Assembly (NCBI GenBank): GCA_016867315.1
Contig: VGJV01000002.1
Coordinates: forward strand, 51,386-115,385
Direction: 5' to 3'
Source of the DNA: Candidatus Liptonbacteria bacterium
Lineage (GTDB): Bacteria > Patescibacteriota > Minisyncoccia > UBA6257 > 2-01-FULL-56-20
Length of the DNA stretch: 64,000 bases
Part shown: positions 6,387 to 62,405 of the stretch, one piece after another
How positions within the stretch are numbered: position 1 is the first letter of the stretch
How the letters are laid out: each line of letters begins with the position of its first letter
Program-made: the position numbers and the translations under genes
The notes under the pieces: generated by a model
The model's database searches: none
Seen by the model: only the letters and a program-made list of their open reading frames with translations
Told to the model about the DNA's origin: nothing

Positions 6387-6893
6387 TTAATGCGGTTTGG
6401 GAATAAACTTTCGAGGAGTATCTGCCTTTGGCACGACCTTAGGCTTAGACCCTAAGGACTTGGACGAATTCAGTGCATCCATTTGTACCGGCCATTGTTT
6501 CGGCTCATCCGGCTTCCCGAGCTCAAACCAGGTGGTACGTCCGGACTGCGCCGAACCTAGTCGTCGCAAGTCCAAATGAAACTCCTCTCCATCAGGATTA
6601 TCCGAGACGAAAAAGAGTCGTGCAGCCAATCGCTCGCGGGTTTTTTCATCAAAACATCCGTTTACCTCCTCATCCTGGAATCCGAGCGCCCGCTGCAGCC
6701 TTTTCACCGCTTCAATGGTTTTCTCTCCCCAACATCCAGCCTCCTCGCCAGTTAAAAAGTCCGGATCCAACAATCCCAAAGTCACAAGCGTGATTTGCAC
6801 TGACACAACTGCCACCCCTTCCGCCTTGGGGCCTAAATGCGGCGGCAATAACTGTAACGCTTGAACCAATAATTTCTTGTCTGACATAACCAT
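6387..6893 (-). CDS. Putative peptidoglycan-binding domain protein
   Basis: 168 aa. Segments CWGEKTIEAVKRLQRALG and GCFDEKTRERLAARL resemble the PG_binding_1 helical-repeat domain. Confidence 0.5.
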   Translation of the reverse strand: MVMSDKKLLVQALQLLPPHLGPKAEGVAVVSVQITLVTLGLLDPDFLTGEEAGCWGEKTIEAVKRLQRALGFQDEEVNGCFDEKTRERLAARLFFVSDNPDGEEFHLDLRRLGSAQSGRTTWFELGKPDEPKQWPVQMDALNSSKSLGSKPKVVPKADTPRKFIPKPH

Positions 6894-7167: not shown

Positions 7168-10100
7168 TGGGAAAATTTGTTCATCTTCACACTCACTCTC
7201 ACTACTCTCTCCTTGATGGCCTTGCGAAAATTGAGGATCTTGTAGGTCGCGCAAAAGAACTCGAAATGGATGCCTTGGCACTCACTGATCACGGCGTGCT
7301 TTACGGCGCAATCGAGTTTTATAAAAAAGCCAAAGCTGCCGGGATCAAACCCATCCTAGGAGTGGAAGCCTATATTGCCCCGAAAGATAGGAGGTCTCGC
7401 GATGCAGGAGAAAAATACTATCACCTCATTCTACTCTCCGAAAATATCACCGGTTGGAAAAATCTTATTAAACTCGTAACGAAAGCGAATCTCGAAGGTT
7501 TTTATTACAAACCGCGGATGGATAAGGACCTTCTTCGTGAATACCACGAAGGAATTATTGCGCTTTCCGCCTGCTTCACGGGAGAAATTCAACGCGCCAT
7601 CAACGAAGATAAAGATACGGACGCAGTATTAAAGGAATACGTGGACATTTTCGGCAAAGAAAACTTCTTCTTGGAAATCGGCTATCACCCTCATGTAAGC
7701 CCCAAACAACACGAAAAGGTGTGGAATGGATTGATCGCCCTCTCCAAACGGTCGGGAATTCCCCTTGCTGCCACGCAGGATATCCATTATGCACACCCCG
7801 ATGATCGCGAATATCATGATGTACTTCTTGCGGTGCAAACAGGAAGCAACCTGTCGGATGGAGATCGATTAACGCTCAAAGCTGACAATTTTTCCATGAC
7901 CTCTCCTGAGGAAATGGAAAAGAATTTTAAAAATATTCCGGAAGCGGTAACGAACACGGTAAAAATCGCCGAGCGCTGCAACGTAGAACTCGAACTTGGG
8001 AAAACCCAGCTCCCTGATTTTCCGAAACCGGAAGGCAAAACTGCCAATCAATATCTCCGCGAACTGGCGTATGAACGTCTCCCCAACCGTTTTTCGAAAG
8101 AAGCGCAAACACAGGAAGTGCTCGACCGGCTGGAGTATGAGTTAGGAGTTATAGAGAAAACCGGCTTCGCCGACTACTTCCTTATCGTGCAAGATCTTAC
8201 CGGCTGGGCTCGTGCGCACGGTATTGCGGTGGGCCCAGGAAGAGGCTCTGCGGCCGGGAGCCTTATGTCCTACGTCCTCGGAATTACGGACATTAACCCA
8301 TTGCGGTACGGGCTCCTCTTTGAGCGTTTTTTAAATCCGGAACGTATTCAAATGCCCGACATCGACATCGATTTCGCCGACACTCGCCGGGATGAAGTGT
8401 TAGCCTATGCACGTCAAAAATACGGCGAAGATCGCGTAGCCCAGATCATCACGTTTGGAACAATGGCTGCCCGTGCCGCAGTACGCGACGCCGGCCGCGC
8501 CATGGGCCTTCAATATGGCTTTTGCGATCAAATCGCGAAACTCATTCCTTTCAATGCCACGATCGAGGAATCGTTGGAACAAGTTCCTGAACTTCTCGAA
8601 CTTTACAAAAAAACTCCGGATGCAAAACGCGTGATGGATACAGCGAAGCACCTCGAAGGGGTGGCACGGCATGCGTCGGTACACGCCTGCGGTACTGTGA
8701 TTTCCAAAAAATCTCTTACCGAATACCTCCCACTCCAATACGCGCCGCAAGACAAAAACGCGATTATTACTCAATTTGAAATGCATTCCGTGGAAGACCT
8801 TGGGCTCCTTAAAATGGATCTTCTGGGTTTGAAAAACCTCACTATAATCGAAGAAACTATTCGGCTCGTAAAAGATCTGCGGGGAGAGGAAATCCAAATC
8901 TCGAATCTGCCACTCGACGACAAAGCCACCTTCACGCTGCTCCAAGCCGGAAATACCACGGGCGTATTTCAATTTGAGTCATCGGGCATGCGCCGCTACA
9001 TGAAAGAAATCCACCCAACCGAACTCGAAGATTTAATCGCCTTAGTAGCGCTGTTCCGCCCGGGTCCTATGGAACTTATTCCCACTTTTATTAAACGCAA
9101 ACACGGCCTGGAGAAAATCACCTATCTTCACCCCCACCTCGAACCAATTTTGAAAACCACCTACGGCATCGGTGTGTATCAAGAGCAAATGATGCAAATC
9201 GCCCGGGACGTTGCGGGGTACACCTTGCCCGAAGCAGACACGTTGCGGAAAGCTATCGGGAAAAAGATTAAATCGCTTTTGGATGAACAAAAATCCAAGC
9301 TGGTGAACGGAATGGTAAAGAACGGCATTCCCCCAAAGATTGCGGAAGCAATTTGGGAACTCTTCCCGCCCTTCGCCCGATACGGATTCAACAAGAGTCA
9401 CGCCGCCTGCTATGCCTTGATCGGCTATCAAACTGCCTACTTGAAAGCCCATTATCCCATCGAATACATGGCGGCACTCCTCAATGCCGATCTGAACGAT
9501 TTGGATCGCATTTCCTTCCTGGTAAATGAAGCCAAACAAAACAACATTCCAGTGCTCGCTCCCGATGTTAACAAAAGCTTCGTAAAATTTGCTCCGGAGG
9601 AAGGGAAAATCCGCTTCGGCCTTTTAGGAATCAAAAATGTCGGTTCTCAAATCGCGCACGCCATTATTGAGGAACGGATAAAAGGCGGAGCTTTCCAAAC
9701 TTTCACGGACTTCCTCGCCCGCATTCAACACAAAGATTTGAATAAAAAATCTTTGGAAAGCTTGGCAAAGGGAGGTGCTTTGGAATCCTTAGGCGTGGAA
9801 CGCAATCAGGTAATCCAAAATTTGGATGACATCGTGCGTTTTGCGGGCGCCGCGCGGAAAACCGCCGGCCAATCAAATTCCCTCTTCGGCTCTTCTACCG
9901 CCTCGCTTTCCATAAAGCTAAAACCCGCGCCTCCCGCTACTCGGGAAGAAAAACTGGGCTGGGAAAAGGAACTCCTGGGCTTCTATCTCTCGGATCATCC
10001 GTTGAACTCTTATAAAGAAAAAATAAACTGGCTCAAAGCGAAGCCGCTCCATGAAGTTCGCGCCATCAAAGACGAAACCAAAACCTTCCGCGCCGCGGGC

Positions 10101-12426: not shown

Positions 12427-12522
12427 AATATGCGAAGTCCTGTTTCGTGCAGAGATTCTCGGAGTGCGTCGGCACGAGAGCATAGCGGTCGCGAAAGCCC
12501 TTCGCGAACCGCGTCCCCGCAA
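12427..12522. repeat. GC-rich structured repeat, copy 1 (conserved core plus a covarying closing helix). Partial copies lie at 12342-12372 and 12387-12410
   Basis: Core GATTCTCGGAGTGCGTCGGCACGAGAGCATAGCGGTCGCGAAAGCCCTTCGCGAACCGCGTCCCC. Flanked by gtcctgtttcgtgc ... gcaagaaataggac (14-bp helix). Lies between the greA stop and the lysS start. Confidence 0.6.
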
Positions 12523-12542
12523 GAAATAGGACAAGCCCCTTT

Positions 12543-17171: not shown

Positions 17172-17272
17172 GTCGGCTTCGGGTGGAAAAGGGATTCTCG
17201 GAGCGCGGCGGCGCGAGAGCATAGCGGCTGCGAAAGCCCATCGCGGACCGCGTCCCTTTGCCATACGAAGCC
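17172..17272. repeat. GC-rich structured repeat, copy 2 (between rplO and secY)
   Basis: Core GGGATTCTCGGAGCGCGGCGGCGCGAGAGCATAGCGGCTGCGAAAGCCCATCGCGGACCGCGTCCC. Flanked by cggcttcgggtggaaaaggga ... tccctttgccatacgaagccg (21-bp helix, 19 pairs). Confidence 0.6.
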
Positions 17273-26081: not shown

Positions 26082-26360
26082 CTACTTTTTGGGTTTCTTG
26101 TATACCTTATCCCGCAACGCAATGCGATGAATCGTAACAATATGTGATTCGTGTTCCATCTCGTAAACCACTCGCCAATCTCCTACACGCAGCTTAAAAT
26201 ATCCGTGCCACTCGTGGCCAAGCGCCTCATGAACAACCGAAGGAAAATTCTCGCGAAACCACTCCAATTTGCCTAAAATCCTTCTCTGTACTGGCGCGTC
26301 CAAAGAGCGTAAATCTTCCTCTCCGGTGAGAGTGAAAGTAAATTTCCAGCCCGAGGACAT
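26082..26360 (-). CDS. Type II toxin, RelE/ParE family
   Basis: 92 aa. FKLRVGDWRVVYEMEHESHIVTIHRIALRDKVY is typical of the RelE/ParE fold (plasmid stabilisation system protein). Confidence 0.75.
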   Translation of the reverse strand: MSSGWKFTFTLTGEEDLRSLDAPVQRRILGKLEWFRENFPSVVHEALGHEWHGYFKLRVGDWRVVYEMEHESHIVTIHRIALRDKVYKKPKK

Positions 26361-26368
26361 TCTATAAA

Positions 26369-26569
26369 CTAGAGCGAACTCACTACCTCCTCAAAAGTAC
26401 GGATCCTGCCTTGCTTTTTTTCCGCAGCAGATTTCTTGAGTCTCTTTACAAACGCGGAGCGAATCTCAAGTCCTTTGTCAGAATCGATAAGCAATTCGCG
26501 CAATGCACGCTGCACCGCCCGCTCCACCACTGCTTCGATTTTTTTTTCTTCAATAGTAATGCGAGCCAT
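26369..26569 (-). CDS. Putative antitoxin (ribbon-helix-helix or Phd-like), partner of the RelE/ParE toxin
   Basis: 66 aa, helical and charged. Stop lies 9 nt upstream of the toxin start. Confidence 0.6.
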   Translation of the reverse strand: MARITIEEKKIEAVVERAVQRALRELLIDSDKGLEIRSAFVKRLKKSAAEKKQGRIRTFEEVVSSL

Positions 26570-27099: not shown

Positions 27100-27195
27100 A
27101 ATCCTGCCGCTTGTGGGGATTGTCGGAGCGCGGCGGCGCGAGACATAGCGCTGCGAGAGCCCCTCGCAGATAGCGTCCCCACAAGTGACAGGATG
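27100..27195. repeat. GC-rich structured repeat, copy 3 (3' of rpsJ)
   Basis: Core GGGATTGTCGGAGCGCGGCGGCGCGAGACATAGCGCTGCGAGAGCCCCTCGCAGATAGCGTCCCC. Flanked by atcctgccgcttgtgggga ... tccccacaagtgacaggat (19-bp helix, one mismatch, one G-U). Confidence 0.6.
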
Positions 27196-37664: not shown

Positions 37665-37685
37665 TGGATAAATTAAGAGAATCCC

Positions 37686-37958
37686 TTACTCAAAGGGATT
37701 CTTGTATGCATCCTTTATAGGATTCGGCGCCGGCGCTAATTCCGGCACTTTGTCTTGAAGCGGATTCTGCGCCTTCTCCAAAATTGAAGCTCCTAAACTA
37801 GAAGTAGATACCGCTTCAGTCTGAGCAGCAGAAGGAGCTGCAGGAGCCTGCCCCGTTGAAGGAGAAGGAGAAACATCTGCAGAGAGCACATACCACACTG
37901 CGACCGCTGCCGCGATAATGAGTATGGCCCCCACCACAATTATTTCTTTCTTATTCAC
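37686..37958 (-). CDS. Small membrane-anchored Ala/Pro/Ser-rich protein (GTG start inferred)
   Basis: TM helix (IIVVGAILIIAAAVAVWYVL) then a low-complexity tail. The track ORF extends upstream over repeat copy 4, so it was trimmed to the GTG at 37958. Its stop is 21 nt before the large-protein start. Confidence 0.35.
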   Translation of the reverse strand: MNKKEIIVVGAILIIAAAVAVWYVLSADVSPSPSTGQAPAAPSAAQTEAVSTSSLGASILEKAQNPLQDKVPELAPAPNPIKDAYKNPFE

Positions 37959-38053
37959 GTATTTTACATTGTAACAAACTCTCTCACCTGCAATTGTGGA
38001 TATCTCCGTTATCAATAAAAATATGAAGGGCGCGTAGTCTCGTTCGCGCTTCG

Positions 38054-38143
38054 ATATGTCCGGCGGGGATTCTCGGAGCGCGACGGCGTGAGAGTATAGC
38101 GGCCGCGAGAGCCCCGCGCGGACCGCGTCCCCGCAGGACATAT
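38054..38143. repeat. GC-rich structured repeat, copy 4 (between the Kelch gene and the small membrane protein gene)
   Basis: Core GGGATTCTCGGAGCGCGACGGCGTGAGAGTATAGCGGCCGCGAGAGCCCCGCGCGGACCGCGTCCCC. Flanked by atatgtccggcgggga ... tccccgcaggacatat (16-bp helix, one mismatch). Confidence 0.6.
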
Positions 38144-38157
38144 GGGAAGCAACAGAA

Positions 38158-39276
38158 CTACTTAGCAAACGACGAATACCACACCTCGTTATCCCAGCCC
38201 CAATCATTCCGCATTCCTCCGGAAATCCACATCCGATCATGAAACACCACCGCGCCATGGTCTTCTCTTCCAAGCCACGAGGGGTCTCGATCGGTTTTTT
38301 CCCAAGTAACCCCATCTTTCGTAAACCATACATCATTCACTCCGCGAGATTCCGGATCATTCAAACGCCCCAAACTCCAAAGCGCGCCCTCAAAAGAAAG
38401 AAGTGCATGCCCCTGCCGTTCAGCCCAAGGCGGAGTATTCGTGAGTAATCTCCACGCACTTCCATTCTCGGAAACCCACACATCGCGGAACGTGCGCCCC
38501 GCAAGGTCCATACCTCCAGTAAGATATAGCCTATCATTAAACACAGCGACTGCATGATCCCAGCGGGGAATCCATTCTGCTTTGCCAGTTTCCTCCGTCC
38601 AATACACCCCATCCGCCGAAGACCACACATCGCTAAGAGTGCGATCTCCGTACCGCACTCCTCCGATAAGCCAAATTTTGTCGCGCCATACAAGGAGCGT
38701 ATGTCCCTCGCGAGGGATCCAGGGCGCCGCAGAAACCATCTGCTCCCATTGCCCCCCATCCTCGGTAACCCATATATCGTTTTTATATCCTACCTCAGGC
38801 CCCCACCCACCCATCACCCAAAGTTTTCCCCTGAATTCCACTGCCTGAATCGAACGCCGTTTTCCCCAAGGAGCGTGATCTAAAACTTTTTCCCATGTAA
38901 GTCCCGTCTTAGAAGTCCATACGTCATCAAAATACGGCGCTTCCCAATATCGCACATGCTCACCCGCGGCATCCCGAGTAACCAACCCATTGCCGTTGAG
39001 TCCTCCCATCACCCATAAAGCATCTTTGAATACGACAAACGCATGCGAATCCCGCGCCTCCCACATTGGAGATTGAGGCGCCCGATACCACTCGAGCGTA
39101 GGAAGCAAAGGCTGAGGTTCGGGCGGCAAAGGAAGAAGCGCAGGAGCAAATGCCTGTGGCAAAAGCGCCGGTTCATAAATCCCAAGTTCTTTTAAAACTC
39201 CTTGTCGCCAAAATCCAAAAACGATAAGTATCGCGCCTAGGCCTATTCCGATGGCCACCGCCTCATGGTGTCTCAT
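38158..39276 (-). CDS. Membrane-anchored Kelch-repeat beta-propeller protein
   Basis: N-terminal TM helix (AVAIGIGLGAILIVFGFW) then six or more Kelch-like repeats (...WVMGG..., ...IWLIGG..., ...LYLTGG..., ...MWISGG... with a recurring DVW). Trimmed to the MRHHEA start. Confidence 0.7.
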   Translation of the reverse strand: MRHHEAVAIGIGLGAILIVFGFWRQGVLKELGIYEPALLPQAFAPALLPLPPEPQPLLPTLEWYRAPQSPMWEARDSHAFVVFKDALWVMGGLNGNGLVTRDAAGEHVRYWEAPYFDDVWTSKTGLTWEKVLDHAPWGKRRSIQAVEFRGKLWVMGGWGPEVGYKNDIWVTEDGGQWEQMVSAAPWIPREGHTLLVWRDKIWLIGGVRYGDRTLSDVWSSADGVYWTEETGKAEWIPRWDHAVAVFNDRLYLTGGMDLAGRTFRDVWVSENGSAWRLLTNTPPWAERQGHALLSFEGALWSLGRLNDPESRGVNDVWFTKDGVTWEKTDRDPSWLGREDHGAVVFHDRMWISGGMRNDWGWDNEVWYSSFAK

Positions 39277-39283
39277 ATGAAAT

Positions 39284-41083
39284 TTAATTTTGCCCCATCC
39301 AATCATAAGAAGTATCAAGCCACGCGAGGAGCTTCTTAGCCTCTCCAAAACGATCTTCGGACTCGAGAAGGACTCCAATAATATACCCCTGCCCCTTTGG
39401 ACTCTCTGCCGCGAAGATAAAAGCTTGTCCTGCCCGCGGCGTCTCTCCGGTTTTGCCGGCAAAAACTTCGAAAGGAGCATTCGAAGAATTACTCAGTAAT
39501 GCGTTGGTAGTACGAACGCGATACGTATTGCCACGCGTGCTCCGTACTCGCGTGTCAGGTGTTCCTAATATAGTGCGAAGCGAGGGATGCACCTCGAGCA
39601 CCTCGCGGAAGAGGGCGACAAGCTCGCGGGGCGCAGCTCGATTCAGCGAACTGTCTTTTGCACCATCAAGTCCGGTCACATTAGAAATCGCTACGGCGCT
39701 AAGCCCCAACCTTTGAGCCTCTTCTTTCATAAGCTCGATAAACTTTTCATTCCCTATAGCGTCCGCAAGCGCCCGCGCCGCCGGATTCGATGACTCTATA
39801 AGAAGCAACGAAAGCATCTCTTCTATGGAAATAGCTTCTCCCGCTTCAAGCCGAGCCTGCCCCTCCTTCACCGCTTCCCGAGCAGCCGACAAAGAAACGG
39901 TGATGAGTGTTCCTGGCGGGAAAAGTTTCTCCGCTACAATAGCCGTAAAAAGTTTAGTGATACTCGCGATAGCGCGCGGCACTCGAGACTCCTTTTCCAT
40001 AAGAATCTTGGGCTCGCCTTCCCATGGTATATACACTGCGAGTGCCCCTTGAGCGGAAAGTTCTAACCCGCTGGCTGGACCACGAAATCGGGGATAGCGC
40101 TCATCTCCATGCAAGGCAAGATATTCCGCGGTTCCCACGTTGCCCTCTTTGATCCCTTTCGCAATTGCCTCCCCTACAAATCGATAATGCCAAGGCTCAT
40201 GCATATAGGTCGTGATGGTTTCCCGCTCGGGCGGATAAGATTGTACAAATCCAAATTCTGCAGCATGCCTCTCCAACCAACGCCCCTCTTCGGTTTTATG
40301 GAAATTCAAAGGCGTCCCTCTAAACCCTACGGTAAATCCTGTGAGATCTACCGTAGTTCCTAACTGGTGCTCAGAAGCCCCGGGAGGAGCCACGGCGTTG
40401 CGTGCGCGCTCTCCCTCAACTGCGAGCCAATACTCAAAAAGAGCTTTTTGCACCTCTGCCGAGCGGAAACCGGAACTCACTCCCAACTGAATATTTTCTT
40501 TTTTGGCTGCCTCGAGCATTCGCCTGAGAGCTCCTGCGGTCTCCTCTCGTAAACAAATAATTCCATTTGTCCAAATTCCCTTCGCTTCAAGCACCACAAG
40601 ATCCGCAGGCGCATACGCGTACGGCAAGGAATGCTCCTTGTCTACGCGATACAAAGAAAAATCCGGATATGCTCCTGAAGGTTTGGGACACACTACGTCA
40701 AAATACAGTCTATTTATGTGCTCTCGAGTTTCGGCATCAAATGTTCCCGTCTCCGGTAAATTTTCTTCTTTCTGCAAAGCACGCACTGCGGCCTGCGTCC
40801 GGTCGCCGTAAAAACCGGAAACATCTTTTGCATTCAAAAAGTTTTGCTGCGCAAGTGTCCGCTGCAGCAATGTCACATCTGCACCTCGAATTCCCTTTCC
40901 CAAATCCCGAGTAAAACCAGCTCGAGCCCGCCACTCCCGCGCGGCATTCACTTCGAGCCGAAGCAACGCCGCCACCTGCGACTCGGAAATTTCCTCCTCA
41001 ATAACCGCCTTATGCACGAGAAGTCCGCTAAGGATTACCGTAATCCCTACCGCCCCTCCGATCCACATAAACCATCGACTCAT
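39284..41083 (-). CDS. Multidomain cell-wall enzyme: peptidoglycan-binding domain, M15 (VanY-like) D-Ala-D-Ala carboxypeptidase, and S11 serine DD-carboxypeptidase (PBP5-like)
   Basis: TM anchor. PG_binding_1-like segment (DVTLLQRTLAQQNFL...GFYGDRTQAAVRALQ). VanY-like SGFRSAEVQ ... EHQLGTTVD. Serine peptidase SITK (SxxK) and SSN motifs. Trimmed to the MSRWFMW start. Confidence 0.7.
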   Translation of the reverse strand: MSRWFMWIGGAVGITVILSGLLVHKAVIEEEISESQVAALLRLEVNAAREWRARAGFTRDLGKGIRGADVTLLQRTLAQQNFLNAKDVSGFYGDRTQAAVRALQKEENLPETGTFDAETREHINRLYFDVVCPKPSGAYPDFSLYRVDKEHSLPYAYAPADLVVLEAKGIWTNGIICLREETAGALRRMLEAAKKENIQLGVSSGFRSAEVQKALFEYWLAVEGERARNAVAPPGASEHQLGTTVDLTGFTVGFRGTPLNFHKTEEGRWLERHAAEFGFVQSYPPERETITTYMHEPWHYRFVGEAIAKGIKEGNVGTAEYLALHGDERYPRFRGPASGLELSAQGALAVYIPWEGEPKILMEKESRVPRAIASITKLFTAIVAEKLFPPGTLITVSLSAAREAVKEGQARLEAGEAISIEEMLSLLLIESSNPAARALADAIGNEKFIELMKEEAQRLGLSAVAISNVTGLDGAKDSSLNRAAPRELVALFREVLEVHPSLRTILGTPDTRVRSTRGNTYRVRTTNALLSNSSNAPFEVFAGKTGETPRAGQAFIFAAESPKGQGYIIGVLLESEDRFGEAKKLLAWLDTSYDWMGQN

Positions 41084-41302
41084 ATGAAAATAAGAGTACA
41101 CGACAAGGAAGCTCCTCGCCAGGAGTTTTTGCCAATTGAAGAGAGTTATGGTATACTTCCGCGGTAAGTGTTCTCGGAGGTTTTCTGAACCCAAGACACC
41201 TTGAGTGTTGTAAGGCGAGGAACCAGAAGAGAGAGGGGGTCTCGAGCAATTTGCTCTTAATTAATAAGACTCCAGGTCGCCTTACAGCCTATACGAAGAA
41301 AA

Positions 41303-41590
41303 ATGGCTAAAAGATTGTACGTAGGAGGACTTCCCTATTCCACCACGCAGGACGAGTTGAAAGACGCGTTCGCGCAAGCGGGAACTGTGGAATCCGCCTC
41401 GATCATCACCGACAAAATGTCCGGCCGCTCCAAAGGTTTTGGTTTCGTCGAAATGTCGACTGACGCGGAAGCGCAGAAGGCAATTGAGATGTGGAACGGA
41501 AAAGACTTTGGTGGACGGAAATTGACGGTGAACGAAGCACGGCCCATGGAGGCCCGTGCACCCCGCAGCGGTGGTGGAGGAAACTGGTAA
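41303..41590 (+). CDS. RNA-binding protein with a single RRM domain and a Gly-rich tail
   Basis: RNP-2 LYVGGL and RNP-1 KGFGFVEM. Confidence 0.85.
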   Translation: MAKRLYVGGLPYSTTQDELKDAFAQAGTVESASIITDKMSGRSKGFGFVEMSTDAEAQKAIEMWNGKDFGGRKLTVNEARPMEARAPRSGGGGNW

Positions 41591-56083: not shown

Positions 56084-56968
56084 CTAGGGACTCCAATTGA
56101 TAATAACTTCGTTTACGGTAGGAGAAGTAGTTTGCATCCGATTTGATACAAGAATCACTCGATAGCGGAAATATCGCTTACCACTGTGCAATGTGTAATC
56201 CACCCGTTTCGATACCCCAGGACTCGTAGCATAGTACGTATTCGATGTCCCATCCGATCCCACATACGTCCAAGGACCGCTCGAGGAATTAGAAGTAGCG
56301 AATTGGAAACGCACCTGAGTCTCCGACGGCTGGGTACCCTGCCAAAGTACCGAGTTGATCTGCACCCCGCCTGAAACTCCCGTATCAAATGTGGAAGAAT
56401 CTAATGTCGCGATTGCTGAAGTTGCCACCCAAGAAGCCTGCAGTCTGTAATTCGAAACAAGACAACTATTGGAGGTATACTCGCTATTGTTTGCGCAATT
56501 AAAACTAATCCATCCTGCAACATCATTCCAAGCGTAACCGGAAAACATCCCGTTATCCGCATCAATAAGCACCTGATAATTAGAAGTACCGCATCCATTA
56601 TTATTATGGCAATCGAAGCTGATCCAACCGTATTGATCATTCCATGCATAGCCGCTTAAATTCCCGATGCCGTCATTCGTTACCTGATAATTGGATTGAC
56701 TGCAAATATTACCGCCAGAAGTAGTAGCGCAATCGAGGGAAATATCTTCTACCGAAGAACTTGCATATCCTTTGAGAAACTGGGAGTTCACCTTCACGGT
56801 GTCATTGATATAAAAGTCCATCCAGCCTATAAGATCATTCCACGCATAACGATACGTAGAATCAACATCCGTGGCGGCGCGAGCCACAGAAATGACAAGC
56901 AGGAAAGAAGCTACTCCGCATGCGATCCACAATATGGGGTTGGAATTTCGAGGAGAGGGCGATCTCAT
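56084..56968 (-). CDS. Secreted WND/GW-repeat protein in the pilus operon (putative pilus-associated adhesin)
   Basis: Signal peptide. Four repeats of YAWND(L/Q/V)xGW(M/I)(D/S)F(x)C spaced about 40-45 aa apart. Ser/Thr/Asn-rich. Confidence 0.6.
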   Translation of the reverse strand: MRSPSPRNSNPILWIACGVASFLLVISVARAATDVDSTYRYAWNDLIGWMDFYINDTVKVNSQFLKGYASSSVEDISLDCATTSGGNICSQSNYQVTNDGIGNLSGYAWNDQYGWISFDCHNNNGCGTSNYQVLIDADNGMFSGYAWNDVAGWISFNCANNSEYTSNSCLVSNYRLQASWVATSAIATLDSSTFDTGVSGGVQINSVLWQGTQPSETQVRFQFATSNSSSGPWTYVGSDGTSNTYYATSPGVSKRVDYTLHSGKRYFRYRVILVSNRMQTTSPTVNEVIINWSP

Positions 56969-57630
56969 TGAAATTGAATTTGGATAGAGCCGGTGCTCGT
57001 CGTGTAATAAATTTTTGTAGAAGTAGAAAACTTGCTATTAGTGCTTGTAACGGGGGTATCTTGGCCGGGGCCTCCAAACCAATCTGTTTGGCTGTAGATA
57101 TAACTAGTACGAGATCGAGTGAGATATGTGGAAAGAGTATTGGTAGCGCTTTGCGGCCAGCGGTACACGACGGTAACCCTCTTCGTAGAAGGATCGCTAT
57201 TTCCTCCGCTTGTTACTATAAGATTCCCCGCATCCCGAAAAACATCATCTACATAAAAATAGCGCGTATAGGTCGTAGTTCCCACCTGAAGATTTTCACT
57301 GCCAGACACCGAAGAAAAAGGGGAGGTGCTCGTCGTGAGGTAATATCGATTTGCCGAAGTGGTACTCAAGGCCAGAAGACCATTCCAATCGCCTTGAGAC
57401 CATACGCTCACATTATCCAAAAGTTCTTTCCCAAGGCTTGTACCTACTTGCGACTTAAGTGTCTGCGTATTGCTTCGAAGGACGGGGGCAATAATAGTGG
57501 CTCCTGCTCCAATCATGATGACTCCCACGAGAAGGGCGATCAAAACCTCGATAAGAGACTGCCCTCCACGGGCAGAAAGTAGAAAATAGAAAGTAGAAAA
57601 TAAATTCTTATGTTGATTCATGCCATCCAT
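56965..57630 (-). CDS. Pilin-like protein (prepilin-type N-terminus, Glu5 present)
   Basis: ...LLSARGG|QSLIEVLIALLVGVIMIGAGATII. Unusually long hydrophobic leader (NLFSTFYFLL). Confidence 0.65.
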   Translation of the reverse strand: MDGMNQHKNLFSTFYFLLSARGGQSLIEVLIALLVGVIMIGAGATIIAPVLRSNTQTLKSQVGTSLGKELLDNVSVWSQGDWNGLLALSTTSANRYYLTTSTSPFSSVSGSENLQVGTTTYTRYFYVDDVFRDAGNLIVTSGGNSDPSTKRVTVVYRWPQSATNTLSTYLTRSRTSYIYSQTDWFGGPGQDTPVTSTNSKFSTSTKIYYTTSTGSIQIQFQ

Positions 57631-57665
57631 TCTATTTTCTGCTTTCTAAATTCTATTTTCTAGTC
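57574..57665. repeat. agaaaRtag/ctaYtttct inverted repeats bracketing the start codon of pilin-like gene 56965..57630
   Basis: agaaagtagaaaatagaaagtagaaaataaa (coding, 57574-57604) and attctattttctgctttctaaattctattttctag (57631-57665). Confidence 0.55.
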
Positions 57666-58154
57666 TTAGTAGCTCACCGCCCCACTGGCATTAATTGATA
57701 TTGTAGTCGAAGCTGACCCGGATTTGGTCTGGATAATGACGGAAGTGGCCGTAGAAGCCAATCCGGTAATTTGAGCAAACGTTATTTCTTTAGTAGCTCC
57801 GGACCCTAAACTCGAAGTGGTATATGAAACAGTTTTAGGCAAAGGATAATGTCCCACGCGGGTAGAAGTCGTGTACGTGCCGTAAAAAAGCACATAAAAA
57901 GGCGTGGTAGAAGTGCTATTTTCAAAGTGTACTCCCCATACGGAACTTGAAGCCCGACTAAGAGACCTGCTCTGCGCTTCCCGCAAGGTAGCAGTCACTC
58001 GTTTTATCGTATCTTCAAATTCAGTTCTACTCTGGAATCCGAAAAGGCCAGTGAAGAGAAATGCGGCAAGAATCGCTCCAATAAAAAGCACGAGGGTAAT
58101 TTCCAATATAGTAAATCCTCTTCTATCGGTAATATGCTTTTGTAGTGCCCGCAT
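57666..58154 (-). CDS. Prepilin-type N-terminal cleavage/methylation domain protein (minor pilin)
   Basis: MRALQKHITDRRG|FTILEITLVLFIGAILAAFLF is a classic class III signal with Glu5. Confidence 0.8.
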   Translation of the reverse strand: MRALQKHITDRRGFTILEITLVLFIGAILAAFLFTGLFGFQSRTEFEDTIKRVTATLREAQSRSLSRASSSVWGVHFENSTSTTPFYVLFYGTYTTSTRVGHYPLPKTVSYTTSSLGSGATKEITFAQITGLASTATSVIIQTKSGSASTTISINASGAVSY

Positions 58155-58181
58155 TCTATTTTCTTTTTTATTTTCTAATGC

Positions 58182-59387
58182 CTAGAACTGAGTGGTAAGC
58201 TGATAAATTGGCACAATAATCGAAAGCGCAATAAGGACCACTATTCCTCCCATGCCCATAATGAGAAGTGGCTCAAGCACCGACACTAGCGACTTAATAC
58301 TCGCATCAATACTCGTGGCATAAAATTCACCCAAAGTTTCGAGCACTTCTTCGAGATGCCCGGCCTTTTCGGAAATTGCAATAAGATTTACTACCACCTT
58401 AGGAAATACCACTTCTCGACGGAATGCCTCCCCAATAGTAAGCCCTTTGGCAAGTCCTTCTCGAGCTACCCGCAATAACGCATAACGATATTCCTCCGAT
58501 CCTACGGCATCCGCAGTAATCTCAATGGTCTGGATAATAGGAAGTCCGGCTTTTAAAAGCAACGCCATAGTTGAAACCATTCGCTGAATTGCCACCTCGC
58601 GATAAACACTCTTAATAACAGGGATCCGGCTCATAACTTGGTCCACAATCCGACGACCCACAGAAGTTCGAGTAAAGAAGTATACCCCTCCTAACAGCAA
58701 CCCGATAAAGAGAATGGAGATAACCACAATATGTTCTCCTATGAAAAGACCCACGCCAAAAACCACTCGGGAAAAGAACGGCGGATTGATACCAGAATCA
58801 GTAAAAACCTTAGCAATTTTAGGCAGCGCAAAAGTCACAAGAAACACAAGCACCGCAAAGGCCGCGATAAGAAGAATGATGGGATAGATGAGTGCCGAGC
58901 GAATTCGAATGCGAAGCTCGGCTTCTCGATTCATAGATATGGAAAGATCTTCAAAAGTCTGTTGCAAGCTTCCCGAAGCTTCGGCCGCCTTAATAAGATT
59001 CACAAAAGTCGCAGGGAAAATAGTGGGATATTTTGCAAAAGCCTGATGGAAAGGTAACCCGCGAGTGAGATTCTCCCGCACTTCCAGGAGAAAGTTACGC
59101 ATGGCAGGATTATCAAAATCTCCAATCAAAATATTGATTGCGGAAAGCAAATCAGTCCCCACCCGAAGCATGAGCGCGAGGTACTTTGTAAGGAACACTT
59201 TATCGGTAATAGTGATCCCTCCGAAAATCCTTTTTACTCCGCCGCCTTTTTGTGCCAACGGCGTAATAGTAACCGGCCGCAATTCCTTCGCTGAAAGAAA
59301 TTGAAGTACCTGGGGTAAATTCACGGCATCCGTATCCCCCTCTACAACTTTTCCGGTTTTATCCGATGCAATGTAGTGATACAACAT
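58182..59387 (-). CDS. pilC: Type IV pilus inner-membrane platform protein PilC (GspF family)
   Basis: Two GspF repeats, three TM helices. 401 aa. Confidence 0.85.
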   Translation of the reverse strand: MLYHYIASDKTGKVVEGDTDAVNLPQVLQFLSAKELRPVTITPLAQKGGGVKRIFGGITITDKVFLTKYLALMLRVGTDLLSAINILIGDFDNPAMRNFLLEVRENLTRGLPFHQAFAKYPTIFPATFVNLIKAAEASGSLQQTFEDLSISMNREAELRIRIRSALIYPIILLIAAFAVLVFLVTFALPKIAKVFTDSGINPPFFSRVVFGVGLFIGEHIVVISILFIGLLLGGVYFFTRTSVGRRIVDQVMSRIPVIKSVYREVAIQRMVSTMALLLKAGLPIIQTIEITADAVGSEEYRYALLRVAREGLAKGLTIGEAFRREVVFPKVVVNLIAISEKAGHLEEVLETLGEFYATSIDASIKSLVSVLEPLLIMGMGGIVVLIALSIIVPIYQLTTQF

Positions 59388-59391
59388 AAGA

Positions 59392-61104
59392 TTATTCGCG
59401 TATTACCCGCATCACTTCTTCGAGCGTAGTAAGGGCAAGCTCGGCCTTCTCAAGACCGTCTTCGAACATGGTCTTCATGCCTGCCTTCCGTGCTTCTGAC
59501 CGAAGCGTGTCCAAACTGAAATGGGAATCGGTAATAATTTTCTTGATACCCTCAGAAACTTCAAGCACCTCGAAAATACCAAGTCTGCCCTTATATCCGC
59601 TCCCCTCGCACGCGTTACAGCCTTTCCCCCGATATACCGTTTTAGGAAAATAAGCTTCTTTCTCAAGTCCGAGCTCATTAAATTGAGACTGGATCACCTG
59701 CTTATATTCCGGCTTCATTTCCTCGGAAGAAATGCAAGTAGGGCAAATTCGCCGTACAAGACGTTGTGCTACTATCACATTCAACACCGAAGCGACGAGG
59801 AATGGAGGAATACCTAAATCGAAAAGCCGGGGCACTGCAGTGGGCGCATCATTCGTGTGAAGCGAGGACATTAGTAAGTGCCCCGTAAGAGCGGCTTGGA
59901 CAGCAATGTTCGCAGTTTCCGCATCTCGAATTTCCCCCACCATGATAATGTTTGGATCTTGCCGAAGAAATGCCCGAAGACCTGAAGCAAAGGTAACTCC
60001 CGCCTGAGGATTGATTTGGGTTTGATTCACATATCGCATGTTGTACTCAATAGGGTCTTCAATGGTCACAAGATTCACGTGAGGCTTATTTAAAATATTG
60101 ATGAGCGCATAAAGCGTCGTGGTCTTCCCTGAACCCGTAGGGCCACAGGATAACACCATGCCATAAGTCTTCTTTAAATTAGTGCGAATCAAAGTAGCCG
60201 GTTGAGGTAAAAGCCCCAACTCTTCCAAAGAAAGCGGTTTCTGGGAAGATTCGAGCAACCGCATTTCGATCTTCTCTCCATAGAAAGTAGGCATGATGGA
60301 AACCCGGACATCAACTATTTGATTCACAATATGATGACGAAACCGCCCATCTTGAGGTTTGAAATGCTCGTCAATCTTAAGACCCGAAAGTAATTTTAAT
60401 CGAGCAAGAAGCGCGGGATGAATAATCTTAGGAATTGAAAGTACTTCGTGGAGTATCCCGTCTACGCGATAGCGAATCAGCATCTGATCCTCAAGCACTT
60501 CGAGATGTACATCCGATGCCCTCGAAGCCACCGCAAAAGAAAGAAGATTGTCGACGATTGCCGCGACGGGTAAGTCTGCCGCTGCCTCCTCGGCGCTTTT
60601 AGTTTGGGATTGCAAAGAAGCATGGATATTCTCCTCGATAAGCTTCTTGAAATCTTTTCCGAGCTCATACCCATAAATTGCGAACCCGCGATTCAAGTCC
60701 TCAGACATTGCAAGAAAAGGTCGGGTGCGAGCCTTGAGATGTTGCGCTAAGAATTCGAGCGTCTCCAAGTCCGATGGATCCGCCATCGCCACATCATAAG
60801 TACCATCCTGCTCTCGCCCAAAGATAATGACCTGCCGTTGCCGGGCAATTTCTTCGGAAAGCAGCTGCACTAAATCTTTGTTGATGGGATGGAGCCGCAG
60901 ATTAACTCTTCCTACCCCCAACATTTTGGCTACCAAATCCCCGAGATATTCTGATTCCACCACTCCCTCGGAAACCAACACATCTAAAATACTCTGATTT
61001 TTTCTATCTGCTTCCGCATAGAAAGCATCGAAGCGGTCAGGAGTGATGAGATTCTCCTCTACCAATCGTCGTTTAAGTTGAAAAGAAGGAATAGGAAGCT
61101 TCAT
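59392..61104 (-). CDS. pilB: Type IV pilus assembly ATPase PilB (GspE family)
   Basis: Walker A GPTGSGKTT, Asp box, Walker B and His box. N-terminal GSPII-like domain. 570 aa. Confidence 0.9.
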   Translation of the reverse strand: MKLPIPSFQLKRRLVEENLITPDRFDAFYAEADRKNQSILDVLVSEGVVESEYLGDLVAKMLGVGRVNLRLHPINKDLVQLLSEEIARQRQVIIFGREQDGTYDVAMADPSDLETLEFLAQHLKARTRPFLAMSEDLNRGFAIYGYELGKDFKKLIEENIHASLQSQTKSAEEAAADLPVAAIVDNLLSFAVASRASDVHLEVLEDQMLIRYRVDGILHEVLSIPKIIHPALLARLKLLSGLKIDEHFKPQDGRFRHHIVNQIVDVRVSIMPTFYGEKIEMRLLESSQKPLSLEELGLLPQPATLIRTNLKKTYGMVLSCGPTGSGKTTTLYALINILNKPHVNLVTIEDPIEYNMRYVNQTQINPQAGVTFASGLRAFLRQDPNIIMVGEIRDAETANIAVQAALTGHLLMSSLHTNDAPTAVPRLFDLGIPPFLVASVLNVIVAQRLVRRICPTCISSEEMKPEYKQVIQSQFNELGLEKEAYFPKTVYRGKGCNACEGSGYKGRLGIFEVLEVSEGIKKIITDSHFSLDTLRSEARKAGMKTMFEDGLEKAELALTTLEEVMRVIRE

Positions 61105-61227
61105 CCCATTAGAAACAGACTCCAGGAAGGAGCCGTAGCAAAACGACCCTTATACCGACCCACATTGTTCTTTACCAAATATTGTCTCATCGAAATTTTA
61201 AAAGCTTTGTTATCACGGAATAGAAAA

Positions 61228-61800
61228 CTAAAGCGCAAAGAGATTTCTCACCGACTCCGGAATGAAGTATTGCTCCAAAATTATAACAGACATCGCGATA
61301 GGCACCCACCAATAATAAAGAGGAGCTCGTCCCCAGTGAAACGCGGCGTACACTCCCGTAAGTAAAAACCCGATTAACAATACCGCCACTCCATACCATA
61401 AAAAAGTAGGGAATCCCGCAAGGAAAAAACACAATCCTAAAAGGGCCGCTTCTCCCTTTTCAAAAAAACGATCCCTGCAATAGCAATTGAGCCAATGTGC
61501 CACAAAAGCCAGTGACACTCCCGCTACCAACGAAAAAATCCAAGGAGCAAACAACCGTCTTACATAAAGGAGAAAATAATCTGATGACTGATAAGGGGGA
61601 AGAAAAAAGCGGGTAACTTCATTTCCCTGCCATGCCCAATAAAGAGCGGATGCCCAATACATAAGCACCCCCCCAATGATCACACCTCCAGCAATCCAAA
61701 ATACCTTCACGGTCCTTCGAAAAGAAGAAAGGGGGAGCAAACACTGCAACACAAAACAAGCTGAGAGAAGGGCGAAGCCCAGCTTGTCGGTGAGAAACAT
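61228..61800 (-). CDS. Polytopic membrane protein, possible short prepilin peptidase (A24-like)
   Basis: 190 aa, five or six TM helices, located between pilB and the major pilin. Canonical GGDVKL is not clearly present (FEKGEAALLG). Confidence 0.35.
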   Translation of the reverse strand: MFLTDKLGFALLSACFVLQCLLPLSSFRRTVKVFWIAGGVIIGGVLMYWASALYWAWQGNEVTRFFLPPYQSSDYFLLYVRRLFAPWIFSLVAGVSLAFVAHWLNCYCRDRFFEKGEAALLGLCFFLAGFPTFLWYGVAVLLIGFLLTGVYAAFHWGRAPLYYWWVPIAMSVIILEQYFIPESVRNLFAL

Positions 61801-61805
61801 ACGTA

Positions 61806-62405
61806 TTACAAATCGAGCCCTGGATCAGTACCTACTTCATAAAGAGTCGAACTTGACCCTCCGTCGGTTGATTCTACATCGTTAGATCCCCCGCTCGAGT
61901 ATCGTGTGCTCTCCATTTCCGCATTGAGCTCAAAAGTATAGTTGGTTTCTTCCGCGGCATAACTATAAAAGTAAGTGGCGTTATTGATGGGATCGATAGG
62001 TAGTACGCTTAAGGGAGCTCCGGAACTAATAGCATTGAAGTTTACGGGGAGCCAACCAGACATGTCCACTGTCCGGGCACTGCTCGTCTGTACCGTGGTC
62101 GCGCTGCTATATCGGCCGTTACACCCGGAAGCAGTCGCCGTAGCCGTAGAGGACGTGTGCGCGTAACATTTGCTGTTGGTTCCCGTAATATCGGGACTTG
62201 CTACGTCAGCCATATACAAACTAAGTGCACTCTTCAAAGTAGAAAGGTCGGATATTCGATTTGAATCCCTGGCTTGTCTCAAAAGTTGAGCCGGGTTCAG
62301 CGTGATTACAAGCACTACCGACAATACCGCCACAATAGCAATTACCACGAGCAATTCGATAAGCGTGAATCCCTTTGCGGCACGAGAGTGATGTAAATTG
62401 GACAT
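61806..62405 (-). CDS. pilA: Type IV pilin (candidate major pilin)
   Basis: MSNLHHSRAAKG|FTLIELLVVIAIVAVLSVVLV is a class III signal with Glu5. 199 aa with a Ser/Thr-rich C-terminal domain. Confidence 0.85.
   Translation of the reverse strand: MSNLHHSRAAKGFTLIELLVVIAIVAVLSVVLVITLNPAQLLRQARDSNRISDLSTLKSALSLYMADVASPDITGTNSKCYAHTSSTATATASGCNGRYSSATTVQTSSARTVDMSGWLPVNFNAISSGAPLSVLPIDPINNATYFYSYAAEETNYTFELNAEMESTRYSSGGSNDVESTDGGSSSTLYEVGTDPGLDL

Follow-up and report, generated by a model that had tools for sequence, protein, structure and literature searches.

Four consecutive genes in the metagenome-assembled genome of a Candidatus Liptonbacteria bacterium (Parcubacteria; contig VGJV01000002.1, assembly GCA_016867315.1) encode a tri-domain peptidase, a Kelch protein, a small transmembrane (TM) protein and a cysteine-rich protein, and they probably represent two adjacent, separable cell-envelope modules: a tethered two-step peptidase with its Kelch partner (module A), and an independent pair of the small and the cysteine-rich protein (module B). 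All positions given here are those of the analysed stretch of 64,000 nucleotides (nt), referred to as the window. The four genes lie on its minus strand. The peptidase gene occupies 41083-39284 (599 amino acids (aa), as read from the open reading frame (ORF) and its translation, with the ATG at 41083 as the preferred start), and the Kelch gene (39276-38158, 372 aa) starts 7 nt past its stop codon. The gene of the small TM protein (37958-37686, 90 aa) begins with a GTG at 37958 and is followed by the gene of the cysteine-rich protein (37664-34803, 953 aa).

A sequence-only reading of this DNA had described four successive minus-strand genes with gaps of 7, about 200 and 21 nt, all encoding TM-anchored or secreted proteins. 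The ORFs were found there, with gaps of 7, 199 and 21 nt in gene order, and a Kyte-Doolittle scan (19-aa window, score >=1.6) recognised exactly one N-terminal hydrophobic segment in each of the four products. The cell-envelope theme of the locus was borne out. The reality of the genes is backed by their homologues: the fused enzyme has five close and about 12 distant ones, and at least 845 relatives were found for the Kelch protein and at least 927 for the cysteine-rich protein. The names attached to the close enzyme relatives are Liptonbacteria or Patescibacteria.

A tethered enzyme with two peptidase domains

The peptidase was analyzed with Pfam, and all domain calls on this enzyme and on the Kelch protein exceeded the Pfam gathering scores. 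Behind an N-terminal TM anchor (one hydrophobic segment, aa 4-30), the enzyme carries three domains, all encoded on the minus strand: a PG_binding_1 domain (aa 66-122, 40718..40888; PF01471, E=2.1e-11, 44.3 bits against a cut-off of 23), an M15B zinc carboxypeptidase domain of the VanY/LdcB type (aa 178-304, 40172..40552; Pfam VanY, 123.4 bits against 25) and a Peptidase_S11 domain of the low-molecular-weight penicillin-binding protein (PBP) kind (aa 359-572, 39368..40009; PF00768, 93.1 bits against 27.6). These scores confirm the earlier proposal of a VanY/M15 domain combined with a PBP5-like S11 domain behind PG_binding_1. The motifs on which that proposal was based (SGFRS, SEHQLGTTVD, SITK and SSN) are all present, together with EPWH and KTG. 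The N-termini of the enzyme homologues all open with M-x-RW.

Every catalytic motif of both halves is intact in the window protein. In the M15B half, H239, D246 and H299 are the zinc ligands, E296 is the catalytic residue, and R207 accompanies them. Across 17 fused homologues with 30-57% identity, S237-E-H239...D246, E296-P-W-H299 and R207 of the M15B half are invariant or nearly invariant, as are S374-I-T-K377, S431-S-N433 and K544-T-G546 of the S11 half. One half is degenerate in two relatives, P0150 having lost key residues of M15B and P0155 key residues of S11. The cysteines C132 and C177 are also conserved, which would fit a disulfide formed outside the cytoplasm.

To assess how rare this architecture is, 1.84 billion cluster representatives were searched with HMMER; of the 29,191 matches, the best 150 were inspected. 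Both catalytic halves were covered, in full or nearly so, in about 13 of the 150 (P0001, P0145-P0147, P0149-P0153, P0155, P0156, P0160 and P0190), while the other 137 were mostly proteins with a peptidoglycan-binding domain and VanY (about 310-340 aa) or stand-alone S11 proteins (about 320 aa). In close relatives the two halves also occur as separate TM-anchored proteins, namely P0148 (peptidoglycan-binding domain plus VanY, 53% identity) and P0157 (S11 with its own TM anchor, 52% identity); the architecture thus seems to have joined two enzymes that also function on their own. Each domain is of a known kind and the tri-domain fusion is a rare variant, yet one that forms a small family, and the search bears out the earlier remark that the M15 and S11 combination is unusual. 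Two further searches were made. In a profile search of genome contigs with the fused-enzyme alignment, using the VanY motifs, the matches listed were all VanY-only proteins, mostly from Bacillota, Saccharibacteria and Nomurabacteria, and were uninformative on the fusion; a search of metagenome contigs with the enzyme as a single query returned just four distant S11 relatives.

When the M15B half was compared with the PDB, the nearest protein was LdcB/YodJ of B. subtilis (4ox3, E=2.1e-37), with which it aligns almost without gaps, followed by Bacillus LdcB 4mph (2.5e-32). VanY (5hnm, 1.7e-18), LdcB of S. pneumoniae (5.6e-17) and VanXY (3.5e-15) matched far more weakly. In M15B enzymes the zinc ligands follow the pattern H-x(3-6)-D...H with the catalytic Glu three residues ahead of the last His, and the LdcB site has a Glu in place of the H-x-H histidine (PMC4087270). 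The window enzyme shows this LdcB-type arrangement, H239-x6-D246 and E296-x-x-H299, and has the H-x6-D...E-x-x-H site in common with B. subtilis LdcB. The S11 half gave weak PDB matches to DacB (3mfd), PBP3 (1xp4) and the DD-endopeptidase 6muq, with 5zqa also among the best. It is a divergent low-molecular-weight PBP, and both D,D-carboxypeptidases and endopeptidases of the PBP7 type are found among its best matches. Like DacA it has the SxxK, SxN and KTG motifs; it differs from DacA in that the Pfam search of the enzyme did not find PBP5_C (PF07943), the protein ending 27 aa past the S11 domain.

These two families are the ones that act in the DacA (PBP5/PBP3) and LdcB pathway of B. subtilis and S. 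pneumoniae, where both enzymes are extracytoplasmic and DacA makes tetrapeptides that LdcB then trims to tripeptides (PMC4087270). On this model, the S11 half would most likely remove the terminal D-Ala of the pentapeptide to leave a tetrapeptide, and the LdcB-like M15B half would most likely remove the next D-Ala to leave a tripeptide, so that one polypeptide would perform the two consecutive trimming steps given to DacA and LdcB in Bacillus and pneumococcus. The enzyme would be held by its one N-terminal helix, with the three domains outside the membrane and PG_binding_1 keeping it on the wall. It differs from the DacA and LdcB pair in that both activities would sit on one polypeptide, behind a TM anchor and PG_binding_1 and with a Kelch partner gene attached.

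Several results weigh against these specificities. With the NCBIfam model of LdcB (NF041194), whose cut-off is 275 bits, the score was 71.1 bits, slightly lower than the 81 bits obtained with vanXY. The M15B half is matched no better by S. pneumoniae LdcB (5.6e-17) than by VanY, while the S11 half, besides lacking the PBP5 C-terminal domain, finds its best NCBIfam match in the model of the DD-endopeptidase PbpG. Since the NCBIfam scores lie far under every curated equivalog cut-off, with vanXY above LdcB, the L,D-specificity of the M15B half is treated here as an inference.

The same scores suggest a different arrangement, in which the halves would not act one after the other. Either the M15B half would be a VanY-like D,D-carboxypeptidase, and so a beta-lactam-insensitive duplicate of the S11 half, or the S11 half would be a PBP7-like D,D-endopeptidase that cuts D,D cross-links, with M15B trimming afterwards. 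We consider this arrangement possible but doubtful. Speaking for it are the top NCBIfam matches (vanXY for the M15 half, 5.9e-23, and the PbpG endopeptidase for the S11 half, 5.6e-16), the missing PBP5_C domain and the place of 6muq among the best S11 structures. Speaking against it, VanY and VanXY match the M15B half less well than the Bacillus LdcB structures do, by about 19 orders of magnitude; none of the NCBIfam scores, all being far under the family cut-offs, is diagnostic; and a duplicate of one reaction within one polypeptide would bring no obvious benefit. Sequential trimming of the stem peptide remains the reading we prefer. Among known systems, VanY and VanXY of glycopeptide-resistance clusters belong to the same Pfam family (PF02557) as the M15B half and have the same LAS-type zinc site, but no van genes lie near the window enzyme, and its M15B domain shares the polypeptide with a PBP domain and a domain for wall binding. 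Low-molecular-weight PBPs without a C-terminal domain, such as E. coli PBP7/PbpG (a DD-endopeptidase) and Listeria Lmo2812, likewise have the S11 catalytic domain alone; identity of the S11 half to them is low (E about 1e-10), and it is part of a tri-domain protein. The fusion of S11 with an LdcB-like domain may then serve as a Rosetta stone, suggesting that both trimming steps work together in organisms of the candidate phyla radiation (CPR). To our knowledge, almost no cell-wall biology has been studied by experiment in CPR/Patescibacteria, whose genomes are minimal.

The Kelch protein and its association with peptidoglycan peptidases

The second protein matches Kelch_1 with 61.4 bits (cut-off 20.1) as well as several other Pfam Kelch families, and six H..VVF..LW.GG blades are visible in its sequence. 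An AlphaFold2 model built with 41 homologues (predicted local distance difference test (pLDDT) score 91.5) places a TM helix at residues 3-30 and a propeller of six blades at residues 60-372, connected by a disordered linker rich in Pro. In a Foldseek comparison with the PDB, the best matches were all Kelch domains, those of the eukaryotic substrate receptors LZTR1 and KLHDC2/3/10 (E=3e-20, TM-score about 0.8 on the target). Pfam, model and Foldseek thus agree on the membrane-anchored Kelch propeller that had been proposed. The protein shares the six-bladed fold with these receptors, but identity is 14-24%, it has no BTB, BACK or Cul-box parts, and it is membrane-tethered and extracytoplasmic. 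The family is large in Parcubacteria. NanM is the usual annotation for periplasmic bacterial Kelch proteins, and in some sources relatives are labelled "N-acetylneuraminic acid mutarotase". We rejected this sialic-acid mutarotase as a candidate identity, given that NCBIfam gave no NanM match and its sole match was a 15-bit BamI.

The Kelch gene is closely tied to the peptidase gene. In all five close lineages the enzyme gene is directly followed by the Kelch gene, with gaps from -17 to +19 nt. At the more distant locus L099 the order is reversed, the Kelch gene ending 4 nt inside the start of the gene for a fused enzyme of 39% identity (P0145). Kelch and both peptidase domains are even joined in P0190, a single protein of 804 aa composed of an apparent signal peptide, Kelch, VanY and S11. 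Its Kelch part shares 54% identity with the window Kelch protein and occupies the place that the TM anchor and PG_binding_1 have in the window enzyme. A Glycos_transf_4 gene, which we read as MraY or MraY-like, lies 5 nt after the P0190 gene. Fusions to peptidoglycan enzymes are present in 11 of the top 120 Kelch relatives, in the arrangements S11-Kelch, Kelch-S11 and Kelch-YkuD, and stand-alone relatives are convergent with a class A PBP gene in two lineages. The fusions also place the propeller outside the membrane, as had been deduced from the signal-anchor: the relatives are joined to extracytoplasmic S11, YkuD and VanY domains, and in P0190 the Kelch part follows an apparently cleavable signal peptide.

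The enzyme and Kelch genes very likely form one operon, and the recurrent association of Kelch proteins with peptidoglycan peptidases is the new part of our finding. No literature description was found of any Kelch family recurrently fused to peptidoglycan peptidases, and literature searches on Kelch together with Patescibacteria and peptidoglycan, and on CPR carboxypeptidases, returned nothing relevant.

There are also points that weigh against a functional pair. The locus L095 has a stand-alone Kelch homologue without any peptidoglycan gene as neighbour, and no Kelch gene or homologue was found within 7 kb of the 80 VanY-only loci listed. Any complex of the enzyme with the Kelch protein is putative. 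It could be argued that the Kelch gene is a neighbour by descent alone and has no functional tie to the peptidase, its product being for example a general propeller for the surface or for host interaction. Kelch propellers are generic protein-interaction modules, and other Parcubacteria have stand-alone relatives directly after dnaA-dnaN, or alone. We nevertheless regard such chance proximity as very improbable, given that fusions of this Kelch family with peptidoglycan peptidases come in no fewer than four architectures, that adjacency is kept in both gene orders, and that the gaps between the two genes are short or overlapping.

Module A would be a two-gene unit whose transcription starts in the divergent region at 41084-41302. 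The propeller, tethered through its Pro-rich linker of roughly 30 aa, would be a dedicated extracytoplasmic partner of the peptidase and may act either in targeting to substrate or wall, or in control of peptidase activity. More tentatively, we propose that the tethered Kelch proteins of Parcubacteria could be an unrecognised accessory module directed at peptidoglycan, that is, a binder of the wall or stem peptide or an Lpo-like regulator, which would direct or gate S11, M15B and YkuD enzymes and would be interchangeable with PG_binding_1, as the architecture of P0190 suggests. The nearest structural relatives, KLHDC2/3/10, read free peptide C-termini; by analogy, and as pure speculation, the Kelch protein might recognise the D-Ala-terminated end of the stem peptide. 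Having been fused repeatedly and independently to peptidoglycan peptidases of three kinds, this Kelch family is a candidate for a new wall-targeting or regulatory module.

Separation of the small and cysteine-rich proteins from the peptidase pair

The sequence-only reading had placed all four genes in one candidate operon. Two pairs, enzyme with Kelch and small with cysteine-rich protein, each behave as a unit, and the single four-gene unit was not supported. Comparison of the neighbourhood across genomes speaks against it: the modules occur apart, a promoter motif is conserved between them, and one related locus has a terminator there. Two genomes, L010 (also Liptonbacteria) and L012, have the pair of small and cysteine-rich genes but neither enzyme nor Kelch beside it; the upstream neighbours of the pair there are an antisense tRNA gene and RecG. 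Conversely, Kelch and enzyme are found without module B. The gene ahead of the cysteine-rich one in a Lloydbacteria genome encodes a SHOCT protein unrelated to the small protein. An extended -10 promoter-like element, TGTTACAAT (37968..37976, minus strand), lies 9 nt upstream of the GTG of the small gene, and all five genomes compared (the window, L001, L002, L010 and L012) have an element of the form TTTG[T/C]TA[C/T]A[A/C]T at a distance of 7-9 nt from the start of this gene. An extended -10 so near the start codon predicts a leaderless or near-leaderless transcript for the small gene. In L002, a canonical intrinsic terminator, consisting of a hairpin and a T-run, stands between the Kelch and small genes. 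Thus the four genes together are very likely not an obligate unit, and module B would be a family pair in its own right, found widely in Parcubacteria and transcribed from a near-leaderless promoter that belongs to it.

We weighed this against a single envelope operon in which the enzyme, Kelch, small TM and cysteine-rich proteins would be obligately co-transcribed and serve one pathway. The four genes are on the same strand with the short gaps given above, all four products are extracytoplasmic or membrane proteins, and the four-gene order is conserved in L001 and L002. In L001, however, collinearity reaches far beyond these four genes, extending to TruB, a response regulator and the RRM gene on one side and to M50, S12, S7 and EF-G on the other, so the order says little on function. 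Two observations do weigh against our separation of the modules. A scan of the locus for terminators found no canonical one in the 199-nt gap of the window. In addition, copies of the structured repeat that lies in this gap (described below) also occur within strings of ribosomal-protein genes, which are normally co-transcribed; hence the repeat need not stop transcription, and read-through into module B is possible. The scan used simple sigma-70 and terminator models, gave counts not above those of shuffled sequence and missed the extended -10 seen by genome comparison. With module B found on its own in L010 and L012, module A found without it, the promoter motif kept in five genomes and the terminator of L002, we judge the single operon unlikely and retain the division into two modules. 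Splitting off module B also prevents the cysteine-rich family from being labelled by association with the enzyme.

The small protein is a single-pass membrane protein with a conserved C-terminal motif, SSLGASILEKAQNPLQDKVPE...NPIxxAYKNPFE, and its homologues lie directly upstream of the cysteine-rich gene in L001, L002, L010 and L012. The cysteine-rich protein has a signal peptide, five C-x5-C-x3-C-x8-C units and six two-Cys units (32 Cys in total), followed in its C-terminal part by a low-complexity region rich in G, P and Q and a short hydrophobic tail. It is identical to a 953-aa NCBI entry (locus tag FJY98_02110), and with this length the earlier description of it as a giant Cys-repeat protein was overstated. 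Its family, with at least 927 homologues or clusters, includes Liptonbacteria, Colwellbacteria, Jorgensenbacteria, Lloydbacteria and other Parcubacteria, and all the cysteines within aa 1-430 are invariant or nearly invariant. Neither the small nor the cysteine-rich protein has a Pfam or NCBIfam match. The AlphaFold2 model of the N-terminal part of the cysteine-rich protein is all-alpha (pLDDT 81), and Foldseek found no PDB match to it with E<0.1. A defensin-like match of one relative was sub-threshold (24.2 bits against 25) and was disregarded. From composition and conservation we would guess that the cysteine-rich protein is probably a disulfide-stabilised structural protein, secreted or at the surface, that acts together with the small membrane protein. 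The family is large, uncharacterised and widespread in Parcubacteria, and is worth study in its own right.

Between these two genes, a perfect 10-bp hairpin followed by a T-rich stretch spans the stop codon of the small gene (37678..37702, minus strand; also in L001 at about 8872-8900). The hairpin (10-14 bp) arises where the 3' end of the small-gene coding sequence (KNPFE-stop) pairs with a complementary stretch, and does not occur in that form in L002, L010 or L012. It could be an attenuator that lowers expression of the cysteine-rich gene relative to the small gene. The sequence-only reading had further suggested that disulfide-handling genes elsewhere in the window fit a lifestyle with many extracytoplasmic cysteine-rich proteins. 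The idea is reasonable, but its support is weak, both ORFs lying about 35 kb off. The ORF at 342-731 encodes a TM segment and a WCPHC motif, with a thioredoxin score of 16.9 bits, under the Pfam cut-off of 23.5, and the "CcdA" ORF at 1352-2134 encodes a polytopic protein with cysteines in NPC and FPC contexts and no Pfam match at E<=0.5. With one ORF sub-threshold and the other without a Pfam match, the remark is carried by their motifs only.

Repeats, motifs and neighbouring genes

The gap between the Kelch and small genes contains, as the earlier reading had noted, a copy of a GC-rich structured repeat, predicted to form a three-way junction, at 38054..38143 (minus strand), just past the Kelch stop codon. 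The repeat is about 70-90 nt long and has four copies in the window, the others being at 17191-17256, 12454-12536 and 27115-27183, with a weaker copy at 1256-1331, all on the minus strand. Each copy starts about 7-35 nt past a stop codon, that of Kelch, L15, GreA or S10. Copies also stand between L15 and SecY and after S10. The core is conserved and has two inner hairpins; the outer stem varies among copies yet stays complementary. The copy in the Kelch-small gap has a minimum free energy of -58.5 kcal/mol (z=-2.7), and RNAalifold on the four copies gave 36 pairs, 15 of them with compensatory changes. The repeat has no Rfam match and is absent from all the other, related loci fetched, and a search of metagenome contigs with its core gave zero exact matches; within the searches made, it is specific to the source genome. 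It is possibly a stabiliser or processing element of the 3' untranslated region (UTR), or else a short insertion element whose targets are hairpins already in place. The metagenome contigs L003, L006 and L008, which carry the enzyme-Kelch pair, end about 60-380 nt past the Kelch stop codon, which would fit repeated sequence there breaking the assemblies of those genomes too.

Upstream of the small-gene promoter lies a DnaA-box-like 9-mer, ATATCCACA (37995..38003, minus strand), with 8/9 matches to TTATCCACA. A motif of the form [T/A/C]T[A/G]TCCACA, with 8-9 of 9 matches to the same consensus, is conserved ahead of the small gene in four genomes (besides the window, at about 8569-8577 and 8440-8448 in L001, 4128-4136 in L002 and 6631-6639 in L010). 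It precedes the -10 box by 20-22 nt, except in L010, where the distance is 32 nt. Over the whole window the motif shows no enrichment, with 16 occurrences against 10.4 expected, and it represents an unexplained local conservation.

The peptidase gene is separated by a divergent intergenic region (41084..41302) from a plus-strand RRM gene (41303-41590), which is also divergent from the enzyme gene in L001, L002, L003, L007 and L008. TACTCT, a -10-like hexamer, lies 9 nt ahead of the enzyme ATG, and a plus-strand promoter-like site is located at 41129-41157. Inside this site, the extended -10 of the RRM gene (TGGTATACT, plus strand) is conserved. It is followed by a leader of about 150 nt, part of which (CCGAGAACACTTAC...GTATACCA, minus strand) is conserved in L001 and L002, and this leader may be a regulatory 5' UTR. 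Further upstream of module A, at higher coordinates, follow genes for a response regulator, inositol monophosphatase, TruB, RmuC, FtsZ and FtsA. Downstream of the cysteine-rich gene, at lower coordinates, are an arginase-family gene, tRNA-Arg and genes for an M50 peptidase, S12, S7, EF-G, EF-Tu and ribosomal proteins.

Elsewhere in the window, a second, small PG_binding_1 protein is encoded at 6387-6893, at the left end beside tRNA-Thr, and a type IV pilus cluster with two N_methyl pilins, T2SSF/PilC and T2SSE/PilB occupies 56084-62405 at the right end. Within the ribosomal-protein string, two small ORFs of 66 and 92 aa (26082-26569) separate the S10 gene and its repeat copy from the L3 gene. 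By eye, the longer product resembles RelE/ParE, and the two ORFs could be a toxin-antitoxin insertion.

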